A stretch of DNA of 64,000 nucleotides from a virus (lineage: Duplodnaviria; Heunggongvirae; Uroviricota; Caudoviricetes): IMG/VR virus record IMGVR_UViG_3300042349_000541, positions 30,773 through 94,772 of that record, one strand, 5' to 3'. The notes beneath the pieces were generated by a model, which made no database searches, was not told where the DNA came from, and worked only from the letters and a program-made list of their open reading frames with translations. The position numbers and the translations under genes are program-made. Position 1 is the stretch's first letter. Each line of letters starts with the position of its first letter. Shown here one piece after another: positions 52,327 through 58,399 of the stretch.

Positions 52327-52460
52327 GGGGCTTGGATAGACTGGATCTATCGAATTCTACAAAATTAAGATTATTTTGCAAAATAAACTTGACACTGTTC
52401 AGTGGAAGCAGTATAATTCATCCATAAGAATTAGAAGCCGGTTCGATTCCGGCAGTCTCA
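52327..52460 (+). ncRNA. tRNA-shaped RNA with a long insert in place of the anticodon loop (insert contains a sigma70 promoter)
   Basis: GGGGCT/AGTCTC acceptor, GATAGA-CTGGA-TCTATC D-like arm, GCCGG-TTCGATT-CCGGC T arm. Confidence 0.55.
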
Positions 52461-52490
52461 CTTTAAAACTAGGTTTAAAAGGATAACATA

Positions 52491-54157
52491 ATGAACGAAA
52501 TAGAACAAGCCGTGTTTGATAAGTTAGGTCAAGAAGCTCTCGACTATTTTAGGGATAACTTTGATTCCGAAGAAATGTATGAATTTGACGGAATGAATTG
52601 CGATGATTGTGATGGTTGGGACGGAGTTTCTAGACGTTGCTCTTGCGGTAATCGTCGTGTTTATTGGATTTGGGATAAATCTGTTTTATATGCTGAGGCT
52701 TGGTGAAGTTTTACTTTCGGAATTTTTAAATTTGTAGATTAATTTGCCAAACGTTGTTGACATTATTAGTCTACAGGGTATGATAGTTGAAACCAAAGGA
52801 GAAAAATATGAGTATAGCCCGTGCAAATAAAGAAACTTTAAGAAAAATGCTTTTTAAATGCATAACTGATGATAGTTTTAAAGGTTGCTCAACGGCTGTT
52901 GTAGAAACTTTCTATGAAACAGTATCGAACGAACCTTGGGAAAGTGAATATATCATAGATTTTCTTGAGTATGCCCGAGGAATTACAAAAGATGGTGATA
53001 AAGCAATAGAAGTATTTATTAAGCGAGAAAAAAATGAAAACTAAAGCTTTAGAAGCTATCGAATTAGCCTTGGAAATTAAAGAAAGTGTTTCGCTATCAG
53101 AACTAGCAAGTATTATAGACGGTAAAAAACTAGATGTTCTAAAAGAAATTGCAAAAAATAAATCCTTGCTAAAGCTTGATAAAAAAGGAAATATTACTGG
53201 CTTTGCAAACGTAAGAGATAAACAACTTAAGGATAAATTCCGGAACGGTGAAGTGTATAGTGTACACGGCATTAATTATGGAGCAGATCGAGAGTTGGTG
53301 TGGAATGATTCCAGAGCCGAAGAACTAAAAGTAGGCTATTGGGAGGGCGGTTTTGGCGACTGTAGAGAAATTAAAGTTATACTAGACACAGAAGCTAATA
53401 GGAAATTACTGGAAAATTTAGGTGTTATCGAAATAACATCTGCTAAGACGGAACCTATAGAATTTTTTTGGGAGAATTAATATGAAGTTAGAACTTGGTA
53501 AGGAATATATAGATAATGTTGGCGATACGTGCGTGGTTTTAGATCTTGACTTTAACGGTACAGTCGTAACTAAATACTCAATTGGTGGTAGTTGGGTTTT
53601 ACATCGTCATACTATTTCCGGTGCTTCCTTATATGATCGAAGCTGTGACATCATTAAGGAAAAACCCCAAGAACTAACGCTTGTTCAATATGTTGTATTG
53701 TACACCTCAAAAGATAAACCTAACCATTTACTTTGTTGGGGTATCTATAGCGATCCGCGATTTCTAGCAGTTGCAAAATCAAACATAATTTCTAGTGGGT
53801 ATAATTTTTACGGAACCCAAAAAGTAACATTGCGATCAGACGGAACCAAAGAAAACATAAATTTTTAGAATGACAATAGCAGAACTATTAAAACAGTATG
53901 CCGATACTATTGATGCAATATTTAAATCTTTCAGTATCGATAATTGTTACGGCGAAATAGATGATCGTACATCTGATTTTTTCAGGATAGACGATAACAC
54001 AGTTGAATATTCCGATAAAAAATTTGAGGATGAAGGAGTGTATTTAAGCAGTATTATAAAAAAATATGATAACGATACACACTATTTGCTATACATAAAC
54101 AATGGATGCGGACAAAGATTCTACCAAATATTTGACAAATCGAAAGAAATAAAATGA
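52491..54157 (+). other. Run of 5 hypothetical ORFs including family B copy 2
   Basis: 52491-52706 (Cys-rich), 52808-53044, 53034-53480, 53482-53868 (family B), 53870-54157. Confidence 0.7.
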
Positions 54158-54507
54158 TTGAGATACCAGACGACGAACAATTAGTTTTTGATACTGTGGC
54201 CAAACATTTGCTTACCCAAGGAAAAAAAAGTTTGGGAATTAGTGGCAATTGCCTATATCGCAATGAACAAGGGTTGAAGTGCGCCGCAGGATGTTTAATT
54301 CCCGACGAACAATACAATGTATATATGGAAGGAAAAAATTGGTCTGAATTAGTGCTTAAAGAACATGTTTCAAATCATTGTTATAAACTTATAGATATGT
54401 TGCAGTTTCTCCATGACTTTGAAAGTCCCGATACTTGGCTTTCATTGTTGCACAAATTAGCCAAGGATAAAAATCTTGATACATCTAAGCTACCACTACT
54501 AACATAA
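54154..54507 (+). CDS. Paralogue family A, copy 4
   Basis: CLYRNEQGLKCAAGCLIPD...LQFLHD. Confidence 0.8.
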   Translation: MIEIPDDEQLVFDTVAKHLLTQGKKSLGISGNCLYRNEQGLKCAAGCLIPDEQYNVYMEGKNWSELVLKEHVSNHCYKLIDMLQFLHDFESPDTWLSLLHKLAKDKNLDTSKLPLLT

Positions 54508-54517
54508 GAGGTTTAAT

Positions 54518-55938
54518 ATGTTATTTATGTATGGCATCAAACTTCCACGAAAACGAAAAAAGGCTTTTTTGGCTTATTTCGCGAAAAAAAATCAAAACTC
54601 CGAGTTGACAAACGAGGAGTATGCATTACAATGTTATTGTTCCCAAGGATTGGTTTGTGAAATTCTGTGGGGAGAAAAAAACTCCGCAAAAACAGGAGTT
54701 TTTATGACCACAATACTAAAAATTATAGGGCTTATGTTCGCAAGAAGTTTTAATAATAAGTAAATAAGCATATAGAAAAAAAAATACAACATGAAAACTT
54801 TTGCCAAAGTATTAGTCGATAGAAATAGAGATTTTGTTTTAATTGAAATTATTTTATGTGATTCTTCTGTATACTGGAGATATAGTTGCGAAACAACCGT
54901 TTACCCGTTCAGTGAAAAAGTAAAACATAATGATCCGCTGCTTTATATTTATGATCTTGCTAATCGTCTTAATTGGAGAATCATAGGATACGAAATACTT
55001 TAAGCGGCGGCTTTACCGACTTTTTAGGGCTTTGTTATTATGTTGCTTGACAAAATCCCCGAAGCGGTTATAATAACATGCGTTGAGATTACACTAATAC
55101 GTAAGGAGATAAAATGAAATTCCCGGCAGCAGAAACTATGAAAGAAAGTTCATTGGTTTCATATTTACTTAAAATTAAGCAAATGATTTTAGATAAAGTT
55201 AGTGAAGGTGAATGTAGTATTATTATACCTAAAAACGAAACACACAATTTTGATTTAGTAGAACAACTTGAACTATCCGGCTACCAAGTTTCAACAAGTT
55301 ACATGAATAATGAGGAATTTGTTTATATCTCTTGGAAACAACAAAATACTGTTGTTAATTTGGAATTGCACTGTCCTAGTTACGTTAAAACTCCATATAT
55401 CTAAAAGATTTGAAAGTAAGTAAAATCTTAAAAATTTAATAGTCAGAAAGTAGTAATGAAATGAAAATAAAATTTAACTGGTTTAATGAAGCCGACATTT
55501 CACGCTTATCTAATCTTGCATCTCGTTATTTTTTAGAAACTATGCATATACCAACAGAAGATTCTTTTATATACAAACATCATGAAGATATGTTGAAAGA
55601 CGGTTATTATCAATTATTCGAAACTGATTTTCAATCATTTTCTAAATATGCCAAATACTTCGGCCTTGAACCTATAAGGGAGGATTAATATGAAAACTTT
55701 TATTGGTGTATCTTGCGTTATTTTATCTTCACTGTTTTTTATCGCGGCATTTCTTTCTTGTATTGTAATGCTCGGATATTCAGCAACGGGCTTTATAAGA
55801 GAAATTAAATCTGAAACTACAAGTTTCTACAATATTCTTTTTTATGTTGCTGGACTTTTGTTTTTTCAGATTCCCGGAGTTATTCTTTTTATTTTTGGTC
55901 TCGTTTTCGGATTTATTGCTTCTCGCAAGCTATCATAG
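54518..55938 (+). other. Run of 5 hypothetical ORFs
   Basis: 54518-54763, 54791-55003, 55114-55404, 55461-55688, 55690-55938 (2 TM). Confidence 0.65.
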
Positions 55939-57136: not shown

Positions 57137-57199
57137 GACATAAGTACCAACAAACATTTGGGGTGGCCGGTCCACCCTTTTTTTATAGAAAGAAAAAAA

Positions 57200-57577
57200 A
57201 TGAATATTGATAACTTAAAAGATTTAATACTACAGCACGTTAAAGCTAGATCAAATAAAGTTAGCGTGCTTAAATTTCTTGCGGGCGAATATGAAAGACT
57301 TAATTATAGTAATTCCGTCACAGTAGAACAGATAGTTCGCAAGGCAATAGATAATAACAACACATGTCTTGCGGCCCGCGAAGATGAAAATCTAAAAATT
57401 GAAAATGATTTTCTCAAAACGCTGTTGCCTAATTATCTAAGCGTTGCAGAATTAAAGTCTGCGGTCGGGCATCTTAATTTAGATAGTACGGGTGCTAGCG
57501 TTGGCAAGGCTATTAAATATCTAAAGTCTAACGGGCTTGCGTTCTTACCCGAGGACGTAAAGAAAGCACTAGAATGA
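57200..57577 (+). CDS. GatB/YqeY-like protein
   Basis: Helical; ENDFLKTLLPNYLSVAELKSAV matches the YqeY pattern. Confidence 0.65.
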   Translation: MNIDNLKDLILQHVKARSNKVSVLKFLAGEYERLNYSNSVTVEQIVRKAIDNNNTCLAAREDENLKIENDFLKTLLPNYLSVAELKSAVGHLNLDSTGASVGKAIKYLKSNGLAFLPEDVKKALE

Positions 57578-58212
57578 ATTATCTAAATGTAAACATACCT
57601 ACTTTTGCGGCTTATGTTGACGAAGGCTTTTTTTACAATAGGCCCGCAAGCAATGAAGCCCCAAGAGTATTAGTAGAGGTGTTTTCTTTTACTTCTATAC
57701 CGCAGAGATGCGGAATGTTTTCCGTTATGACAGAATGGGGTACACAACATGCCCGAGTGCCAATACATTATTTGCATACATGCGAGTCCGGCGGCAGTTT
57801 TTATCCGTTAGATTTTATACAATTGTGGGATAGTTATAGTTATTACGTTTCATGTAGTATTGTAGAGTATACCAAAAACCGCAAAGTTGAAATTTTATTG
57901 AAAGATAAAAAGGTTACTACGGCCAAGTATTTGTTTACTATAGATTGGTGTTTGGGGCCTCAATATAATTATGGTTACGCAGAAATGGCTGGCGGGCATA
58001 AATGCGGCCACGTATTTGAGGGCGATGGACAATATTTTATACAACCAAATAATAGAGTAATGTGGATGGATGGCGGGGCATTCATTAGCAAGAAACTTAC
58101 GAAGCCAGATTGGAAAGTATTCTCACAAGAATTTAGTTGTGAAAACACTGGTTCTAAATGGGTTAGCGAATCCAATGAAGAACTTTTTTTCTATCAATTC
58201 AAAGAAAAATAA
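57574..58212 (+). CDS. Conserved hypothetical phage protein
   Basis: YLNVNIP...SIPQR...ARVPIH...QLWDSYSY...QPNNRV; I recall this family from large aquatic phages. Confidence 0.7.
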   Translation: MNYLNVNIPTFAAYVDEGFFYNRPASNEAPRVLVEVFSFTSIPQRCGMFSVMTEWGTQHARVPIHYLHTCESGGSFYPLDFIQLWDSYSYYVSCSIVEYTKNRKVEILLKDKKVTTAKYLFTIDWCLGPQYNYGYAEMAGGHKCGHVFEGDGQYFIQPNNRVMWMDGGAFISKKLTKPDWKVFSQEFSCENTGSKWVSESNEELFFYQFKEK

Positions 58213-58299
58213 GTTGACACACCGCAATGCGGTGGTATAATGAGGGAGTAAAGATCGTGAGTGGAAGTCACGAGGCGACAGCGGGAAAGACTGCAAAAT

Positions 58300-58399
58300 A
58301 GGGGCTTGGCAACTTGGAGTTGCGGACTGGGCGGCATGGAAAACCGCTAGAAGAAATTCGATCCAAACCAGTTCAATCCGTTCGAATCGGGAGTCCCTG
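58300..58399 (+). ncRNA. tRNA-shaped RNA with expanded anticodon arm
   Basis: AGGGGCT/AGTCCCT acceptor, GCAAC-TTGGA-GTTGC D-like arm, GACTGG/CCAGTT stem, TCCG-TTCGAAT-CGGG T arm; promoter at 58214. Confidence 0.65.

Follow-up and report, generated by a model that had tools for sequence, protein, structure and literature searches.

What kind of RNA is specified by a transfer RNA (tRNA)-like gene whose anticodon arm is interrupted by unrelated sequence? Two such genes lie on the plus strand of a 64,000-nucleotide (nt) stretch of DNA (the window), which is part of a 168,799-bp (~169-kb) IMG/VR virus record with direct terminal repeats that represents an uncultured phage. We refer to these genes as copy 1 (52326-52461) and copy 2 (58300-58399), and give positions in window coordinates unless another contig is named. 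The original prediction described the pair as a two-member family in which a tRNA-like scaffold carries different payloads. In this report, we present evidence that the two copies are paralogues descended from a bacterial-type tRNA-Trp(CCA) gene. Our preferred explanation, which we consider evenly poised between right and wrong, is that they specify non-decoding tRNA-like RNAs that would be matured by host tRNA enzymes, and that copy 1 has been reused as a promoter/processing cassette; we infer the expression, processing and stability of these RNAs from sequence.

The window contains exactly two occurrences of the motif GGGGCTTGG, one at 52327 and one at 58301, in both cases on the plus strand. 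The 7-nt acceptor strand opens one base before it, at G52326 and A58300, so the starts lie one base earlier than had been predicted; the end of copy 1 moves to 52461, and that of copy 2 stays at 58399. The acceptor strand is followed by U8, G9 and a D-type hairpin whose stem is unusually long and whose loop is YTGGA, with a purine at position 26. The D hairpins are GATAGA/CTGGA/TCTATC in copy 1 (6 bp, 52335-52351) and GCAAC/TTGGA/GTTGC in copy 2, each followed by G. The T arms are GCCGG-TTCGATT-CCGGC in copy 1 (52437-52453) and TCCG-TTCGAAT-CGGG in copy 2 (58377-58391, with a 4-bp stem), after which come AGTCTC or AGTCCC, within a 3' acceptor strand of the form AGTCYC(W). Minimum-energy folds of both copies recover the acceptor, D and T helices. 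The shared motifs on which the family was proposed (the 5' motif, the YTGGA hairpin and its G, a TTCGAWT T arm and AGTCYC) are thus all present, and the reported total of 11 stacked acceptor and T pairs is also correct: 7+4 in copy 2, and 6+5 in copy 1 plus a terminal G1.A72 mismatch.

The anticodon loop had been described as replaced by unrelated inserts. We find that a 5-bp anticodon stem and a CCA loop are kept in both copies, and that the inserts are placed between nucleotides 31 and 32, on the 5' side of the loop. In copy 1, the stem is AATTC/GAATT and the loop is ATCCATAA (CCA at 52422-52424; loop and 3' stem strand together occupy 52420-52432), with an insert of 62 nt (52358-52419). In copy 2, the stem is ACTGG/CCAGT and the loop is ATCCAAA (58361-58367, with U33, CCA at 58363-58365 and A37), with an insert of 30 nt (58331-58360). 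Neither copy therefore has a contiguous 7-nt anticodon loop, as 37 nt separate the stem strands of copy 2, and copy 1 combines an 8-nt loop with its 62-nt insert. The inserts are, as stated originally, not significantly similar to each other, since their local alignment score falls below the shuffle mean, and neither is repeated elsewhere in the genome.

When ARAGORN is allowed to consider introns (-i), it identifies 58300-58400 as tRNA-Trp(CCA) and places a 30-nt insert at 31/32, and copy 2 is called at the default threshold once the insert is removed. The same intron-permitting search of 20 shuffled genomes gave 0.05 intron-type calls per genome, so the call at copy 2 is not attributable to chance. 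Removal of 52358-52419 from copy 1 leaves a 74-nt sequence reported as tRNA-?(Trp|Met)(ccat), at 95% of the ARAGORN threshold. With their inserts in place, neither copy is called by default ARAGORN.

The nucleotides that specify tryptophan identity in bacteria are G73, A1:U72, G2-4:C69-71, G5:C68 and the CCA anticodon (PMC9976931). Copy 2 possesses this set (A1:U72, G2:C71, G3:C70, G4:C69, G5.U68, G73 and C34-C35-A36), and copy 1 does not (G1.A72, G3.U70, C73). Like class I bacterial tRNA-Trp(CCA) (RF00005), both copies exhibit cloverleaf order, U8, GG in the D loop, a TTCGA T loop, a variable loop of 4-5 nt and a CCA anticodon with U33 and A37. Unlike it, they carry inserts at 31/32, stack 11 rather than 12 acceptor and T pairs and have a 5-6 bp D hairpin; A14 and A21, part of the canonical D loop, are missing from both D loops, which read CTTGGAG in copy 2 and GACTGGATC in copy 1.

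The two copies share RGGGGCTTGG, the long-stem D hairpin with YTGGA, GTTCGAWTC and AGTCYC. They also have in common AATTC(G)ATCCA(T)AA, which spans the border between insert and loop. Because this last sequence and the deviant D hairpin appear in both, we attribute the resemblance to common descent and not to two unrelated tRNAs. The copies are thus paralogues, as the proposal of a two-member family had implied, and derive from a bacterial-type tRNA-Trp(CCA) gene. An alignment of copy 1 with copy 2 by MAFFT was structurally wrong and was not used.

This origin bears on an earlier suggestion that the 5' ends resemble transfer-messenger RNA (tmRNA) or tRNA-Ala and that the RNAs might be decoys for ribosomes or SmpB. 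The resemblance is to bacterial tRNA-Trp. One could still propose that both copies are what is left of a phage tmRNA, namely its tRNA-like domain, and act as such decoys, given that more distant relatives encode tmRNAs near the same 212-amino acid gene that precedes copy 2 here, and that GGGGGC, GACTGGAT and G3.U70 are common to copy 1 and the tmRNAs of those relatives. However, neither ARAGORN in tmRNA mode (-m) nor RF00023 detects a tmRNA at the two sites, where the T arm alone scores, with 10 bits. Moreover, both copies have the D stem, anticodon stem and CCA loop that tmRNA lacks. The combination of G3.U70 and A73 occurs in neither, as copy 2 has G3:C70 and G73, and copy 1 has G3.U70 with C73 and G1.A72. 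At 100 and 136 nt, the copies contain no tag reading frame and no pseudoknots, and no tmRNA is present in this phage or its nearest relatives. We therefore regard a tmRNA origin as very improbable.

Is the fold of either copy maintained? In contigs identical to the window, which come from at least six samples, both copies are unchanged. A lineage that is ~97% identical to the window (a 170-kb contig, L227, and L228; also L221, L224 and L225) contains both copies and allows a comparison. Copy 1 exhibits one difference there, T52456 to C, which converts G5.U68 to G5:C68. In copy 2, 4 of 102 positions differ in L227 and L228, all in stems and all preserving pairing: C6:G67 becomes U6:A67, a two-sided change, G5.U68 becomes G5:C68, and C11:G23 becomes U11.G23. 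The remaining stem pairs are identical, the 54 unpaired positions are unchanged and the 30-nt insert is 100% conserved. Over the same comparison with L227, the RNA downstream of copy 2 has 8 changes, and the leader upstream of it has a 15-nt indel. When random transitions were simulated on copy 2, the probability that all changes fall in stems and keep all pairs was 0.005, and that of a kept two-sided change was 0.016. Because all four substitutions lie in stems and keep pairing, one of them by a two-sided change, we conclude that the fold of copy 2 is maintained by selection; the evidence, drawn from two lineages, is modest but real. The original prediction had inferred covariation from differences between the stems of the two copies, which is what any two tRNAs show, and the informative covariation is that between lineages of copy 2.

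At position 68 (52456 and 58394), both paralogues have T in the window genotype and C in the L227 lineage (L227:2384-2520 and 7742-7843). This parallel change reflects either gene conversion or a shared constraint.

These substitutions also bear on whether the copies are nothing more than non-functional relics of tRNA-Trp, broken by insertions in a recombination-prone early region. Such an origin would fit the absence of both copies from close relatives and from every wider search, the frequent gain and loss of cassettes in the region, and the terminal mismatch, wrong discriminator base and 8-nt loop of copy 1. It does not sit well with copy 2, where the four substitutions preserve structure, one pair is compensatory, and the loops and insert are invariant, nor with the lone copy 1 polymorphism, which improves a stem pair. 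In addition, copy 2 has its own consensus promoter, and copy 1 contains a perfect promoter in front of an open reading frame (ORF), both described below. We thus consider it unlikely that both copies are relics.

Copy 1 is decayed in its tRNA features, with G1.A72, G3.U70, C73 and an 8-nt CCA(U) loop within its 136 nt; its assignment as a tRNA-Trp-like gene comes from its sequence, its fold and the ARAGORN result after insert removal. Its insert is bounded by a direct repeat of AATTC (52353-52357 and 52415-52419), and can therefore be placed at 31/32 or equally well at 26/27. In the predicted fold, the proximal AATTC pairs with GAATT as in a normal anticodon hairpin. Within the insert is a sigma-70 promoter (52389-52417) of the form TTGACA-17 nt-TATAAT, which matches the consensus at 12 of 12 positions and has a predicted start at ~52424, that is, in the anticodon loop. 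Just 5' of the -35 box is a 16-nt perfect palindrome, TTATTTTG/CAAAATAA (52371-52386), found as a blastn self-match and as a hairpin in the fold. A 71-amino acid ORF (52491-52706, plus strand) lies downstream of the promoter.

Based on these features, the copy 1 insert is predicted to be an element that functions in DNA, consisting of a palindrome and a 12/12 sigma-70 promoter, and not a displayed RNA domain. The idea of natural scaffolds bearing RNA domains thus loses the copy 1 payload as an example. Copy 1 lies between two ORFs, with another promoter upstream at 51974. Read-through from the latter would produce RNA holding the entire copy 1 frame; transcripts from the internal promoter would start in the anticodon loop and contain nothing of the frame but its T arm and 3' acceptor strand. 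We also considered whether the insert is a repeated mobile promoter cassette, and rejected this possibility upon finding no second copy in the genome. An 8-mer shared between the copies, AGTGGAAG, occurs four times on the plus strand, near the ~2.6 occurrences estimated for a random 8-mer in 169 kb. The surrounding region, from 23 to 63 kb of the window, is a plus-strand early region with tRNA genes, small ORFs and many consensus sigma-70 promoters, and there are ~35 early promoters of this type in the window.

Relatives in which the locus is arranged differently indicate how the copies behave as units. In L121 and L236, whose flanks are ~95% identical to the window, copy 1 is missing, the 71-amino acid ORF directly follows the upstream gene, and the empty site reads …GTTATAAAC|TAGGTTT…. 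The difference between presence and absence amounts to 139 nt, flanked in the window by TTATAAAC and TTTAAAAC. The same two contigs also lack copy 2, and have in its place a single 93-nt tRNA-framed RNA behind the same promoter. In other lineages, the copy 2 slot is occupied by still other tRNA-framed RNAs with different inner parts. We conclude that copies 1 and 2 are accessory cassettes that are gained or lost as units, that this phage group swaps tRNA-framed RNAs as cassettes, and that the "family" of the original prediction consists of two paralogues in two close lineages. Support for its scaffold proposal comes from the presence of foreign sequence in tRNA frames, from purifying selection on the copy 2 frame and from the other tRNA-framed RNAs found in this slot.

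One further occupant, at L233:7949-8038, has a tRNA frame with acceptor AGAACTGT/ACAGTTCT, in which the anticodon arm is replaced by a hairpin of ~14 bp with a 5-nt loop. A leader hairpin precedes this RNA and is homologous to the one 5' of copy 2, an arrangement that suggests cassette exchange at a conserved leader.

Copy 2 itself, a tRNA-Trp(CCA)-type RNA of 100 nt with a 7-bp acceptor stem, belongs to a compact predicted transcription unit on the plus strand. An early promoter (58214-58241) matches the consensus at 12 of 12 positions, has a TG extension and is kept in L121 and L227. It is followed by a leader of ~52 nt (58248-58299) with two hairpins, the second of which, GACAGCGGGAAAGACTGC, is the one found 5' of the different tRNA-framed RNA in L233. 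The 30-nt insert of copy 2, delimited by ARAGORN -i and by folding, comprises a 4-bp hairpin with a 9-nt loop, GCGG-CATGGAAAA-CCGC, and a purine-rich tail ending in AATTCG. A second tRNA-framed RNA (58403-58544), with acceptor GGATCGG/CCGGTCC and supported by its fold and by relatives, opens 3 nt after copy 2, and a T run follows it before the next gene. The order of promoter, leader, copy 2 and second RNA is the layout of a tRNA operon; therefore, RNase P and 3'-end trimming are expected to release both RNAs. A minus-strand ORF of 135 amino acids over copy 2 was rejected as a gene candidate, as it has no family match and the region is replaced in relatives.

Several observations concern the neighbors of copy 2. 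The second RNA has an inner part of ~85 nt and a T-like arm with an 8-nt loop, before the T run. Its family is kept in relatives with just 56% identity in the 212-amino acid protein, in some cases as two copies, with members at L186:3190-3333 (86% identity), L184:2852-2967 and 3113-3228, L230:7784-7885 and L233:7720-7845. The 212-amino acid protein (57574-58212) adjoins the variable RNA slot; more than 80 IMG/VR contigs encode it, and many of its Cys, His and Trp residues are invariant. Neither it nor an adjacent 139-amino acid protein belongs to a Pfam or NCBIfam family, and the PHROGs label of the 212-amino acid protein is "ferredoxin". Its AlphaFold model has a mean pLDDT of 51 and was not used for a fold search. 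In relatives with 67-74% identity in this protein, full tmRNAs with tags such as GTNQLALAA lie near its gene (L123:1958-2312, L125:3257-3611, L130:2588-2942, L139:3383-3818 and L155:7832-8185).

We propose that copy 2 is transcribed early from the promoter at 58214-58241 together with its leader and the second tRNA-framed RNA, and that host RNase P and 3'-end enzymes would cut out a stable, L-shaped RNA of ~100 nt. Because it has 37 nt in place of a 7-nt anticodon loop, a T stem of 4 bp and neither A14 nor A21 in its D loop, this RNA most likely does not decode. It may instead serve as a tRNA look-alike, still recognizable by its acceptor stem, G73 and exposed CCA, that binds or is charged by tryptophanyl-tRNA synthetase (TrpRS), or that engages other tRNA-recognizing host or defense proteins. 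The conserved 30-nt insert would then be the part that confers specificity. Copy 1 would be a decayed sister, having lost G73 and the 1:72 pair and acquired an 8-nt loop, that now chiefly provides the next gene with a promoter and possibly also serves as an RNase P processing site.

Does copy 2 nevertheless decode, after its insert has been excised? If it is a working tRNA-Trp with a removable 30-nt "enigmatic intron", it would read UGG after excision and ligation, and copy 1 would be a dead copy. Precise removal would restore a perfect 7-nt loop, A-U-CCA-A-A, in a molecule whose Trp identity set is complete, and the two lineages have 100% identical inserts. According to ARAGORN, copy 2 is the only tRNA-Trp of this phage. 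The genome also encodes an RNA ligase (PF09414, with an OB fold of the PHA02142 type) followed by RlaP (PF10127), at genome positions 118768-120959 (L245:904-3095), immediately after a second tRNA cluster. Furthermore, tRNA genes interrupted by short sequences whose removal mechanism is unexplained, termed enigmatic introns, were reported in Lak megaphages, where they are polymorphic for presence and absence (Devoto et al. 2019, PMC6784885). That report gives no evidence that the introns are spliced. The Lak introns and the inserts described here are alike in being conserved where present and absent from related genomes. They differ in phage group and host, in the 31/32 position, in that one insert here is a promoter, and in that the folds here depart from the canonical tRNA.

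The difficulty for splicing is the lack of a known means to accomplish it, since no bacterial or phage mechanism is known that excises a 30-nt insert at 31/32. Group I introns exceed 200 nt, far more than the 30 nt of copy 2, and neither insert (30 and 62 nt) has an Rfam ribozyme or intron match at E<=10. The features of protein-spliced introns are also missing, because the insert is at 31/32 and not 37/38, and inspection of the folds revealed no bulge-helix-bulge. The genome has no splicing endonuclease (PF01974), RtcB or Rnl1. Even a spliced RNA would retain the 4-bp T stem and the D loop without A14 and A21. Finally, tRNA-Trp is also absent from the relatives that lack copy 2, which means that this phage group can do without it. 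Overall, a spliced tRNA-Trp seems improbable to us. As a side observation, relatives L230 and L233 have a similar RNA ligase placed in the early region.

A different function is suggested by the gene for a Ro60 orthologue (TROVE and vWA_Ro60 domains) at 61589-63163, on the plus strand 3.2 kb 3' of copy 2. YrlA is a tRNA-like noncoding RNA that is recognized by tRNA enzymes and encoded near the Ro60 gene, within 4 kb on the same strand, and phage examples are known (Chen et al. 2014, PMC4201824; RF02553). Both copies could be extra Y RNAs that partner the phage Ro60, using a tRNA frame as in YrlA and the insert as a docking or effector module. Copy 2 lies within the 4-kb, same-strand range, several Y RNAs are common in bacteria, and two tRNA-framed RNAs with a common 16-nt apical motif are located directly upstream of Ro60. 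Copy 1, however, is 9 kb from Ro60, beyond that distance. YrlA is permuted, consisting of a T arm, a closed acceptor stem-loop and a D arm, with both termini of the RNA located in the Ro60 stem, and it carries GNCGAAN0-1G; the copies follow normal tRNA order and have open acceptor ends. A regular-expression scan of 50001-64000 found neither GNCGAAN0-1G nor GGUCCGA (motif from PMC4201824) in or beside either copy, and RF02553 gave only 17-bit matches, elsewhere in the genome. The 16-mer and the long covarying helix that characterize the Ro60-adjacent pair are both absent from copies 1 and 2, and lineages that keep Ro60 and the two adjacent RNAs lack both copies. A role as Y RNAs is thus quite improbable.

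The Ro60-adjacent RNAs (61134-61252 and 61447-61566) have anticodon arms consisting of long covarying helices, CTTGTAT/ATACAAG in one and CAAGCAT/ATGTTTG in the other, with the cap TTTTTTACTATGTACG in both. The pair is contiguous in L120 and L121, and is separated in the window by an extra 192 nt that include a promoter.

Further members of the family were sought more widely. Searches of both regions with blastn against GenBank phages, in near and distant modes, gave no match, and neither copy is present in 80 IMG/VR relatives of the neighboring 212-amino acid gene or in the entire records of the two closest IMG/VR relatives. A scan of IMG/VR with the pattern GGGGCTTGG-N5-YTGGA-N6-G, which does not fit the spacing of copy 2, matched 119 loci, all by chance and without a tRNA-like continuation. 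A stricter pattern that includes the T loop had 0 matches in IMG/VR and 9 in JGI metagenomes, all by chance. A wider family was therefore not found with the shared motifs in these two collections.

Taken together, a number of points weigh against our explanation of non-decoding RNAs matured by host enzymes. The covariation of copy 2 comes from two lineages only. The Rfam collection, including its tRNA model, matches neither copy at the gathering score or at E<=10. Both copies are dispensable, given their absence from close relatives and the lack of further members in IMG/VR or JGI metagenomes. Copy 1 could be merely a dead gene beside a promoter. The complete Trp identity set of copy 2 is at least as consistent with a genuine, spliced tRNA-Trp as with a mimic, and the role of its 30-nt insert as a binding or effector part is a candidate one. 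In sum, the observations of the original prediction are partly confirmed, and its interpretation is partly supported.

A broader proposal, which we advance only tentatively, is that copy 2 is part of a modular collection of tRNA-framed early RNAs that can be exchanged for one another. The tRNA-Trp frame, whose identity set is kept by selection, would recruit host RNase P, the CCA-adding enzyme and TrpRS, the RNA would become a non-decoding effector through its conserved insert, and copy 1 would be a frame that has turned into a promoter cassette. The effector might be, for example, a decoy or sponge for host defenses that target tRNAs, or a regulator that senses or mimics tRNA-Trp. Such a proposal would place copy 2 in a group of freshwater phages that have Ro60, RNA ligase and RlaP as well.

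Small stable RNAs are known from the tRNA gene cluster of phage T4, in which species 1 and 2 RNAs (rnaC and rnaD) are matured by the tRNA-processing machinery and have no assigned role. They are not known as derivatives of tRNA-Trp with inserts in the anticodon loop. Engineered "tRNA scaffolds" (the approach of Ponchon and Dardel; PMC3753655) resemble the copies in that foreign RNA is placed in the anticodon arm and host tRNA enzymes process and stabilize the product. They are artificial, however, and their anticodon stem-loop is fully replaced, whereas the copies keep the CCA loop, and one insert appears to act at the level of DNA. Insert-bearing phage tRNA genes have already been published, in the Lak megaphages (PMC6784885); new here are the Trp identity, the 31/32 position common to two paralogues, and the promoter at that position in one of them.

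Other structured RNAs were encountered in this genome. A twister-sister ribozyme (RF02681) is present at 27998-28073, with 46.4 bits against a gathering score of 34. At 30505-30580, directly 5' of a tRNA-Met, is a T arm (GTTGG TTCAAAT CCAAC) with weak acceptor pairing, which ARAGORN -i reads as a "tRNA-Pro with a 324-nt intron" and which has a 17-bit RF02553 match across the junction; this is probably another degenerate tRNA-like unit. Beyond the window, at genome positions 115935-116220 (L215), a promoter is followed by two further tRNA-like RNAs, both with a 3' part made up of a T arm, an acceptor strand and TTTT. One of them receives the call tRNA-Val(TAC), with 17 nt inserted at 37/38, and the unit is also found in a relative (G001, L254).

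The pair described here is a tractable case, with a defined Trp identity, a compensatory change in the fold, natural genotypes with and without the genes, and a sister that carries a promoter at the same site. If copy 2 is spliced, it would represent a new tRNA splicing route in bacteria. If, as we prefer, copy 2 is a stable, non-decoding and possibly Trp-charged RNA, then phages use the tRNA frame as a natural scaffold, and attention would turn to a target in the host, for instance TrpRS, a tRNA-directed nuclease or a pathway of RNA repair.

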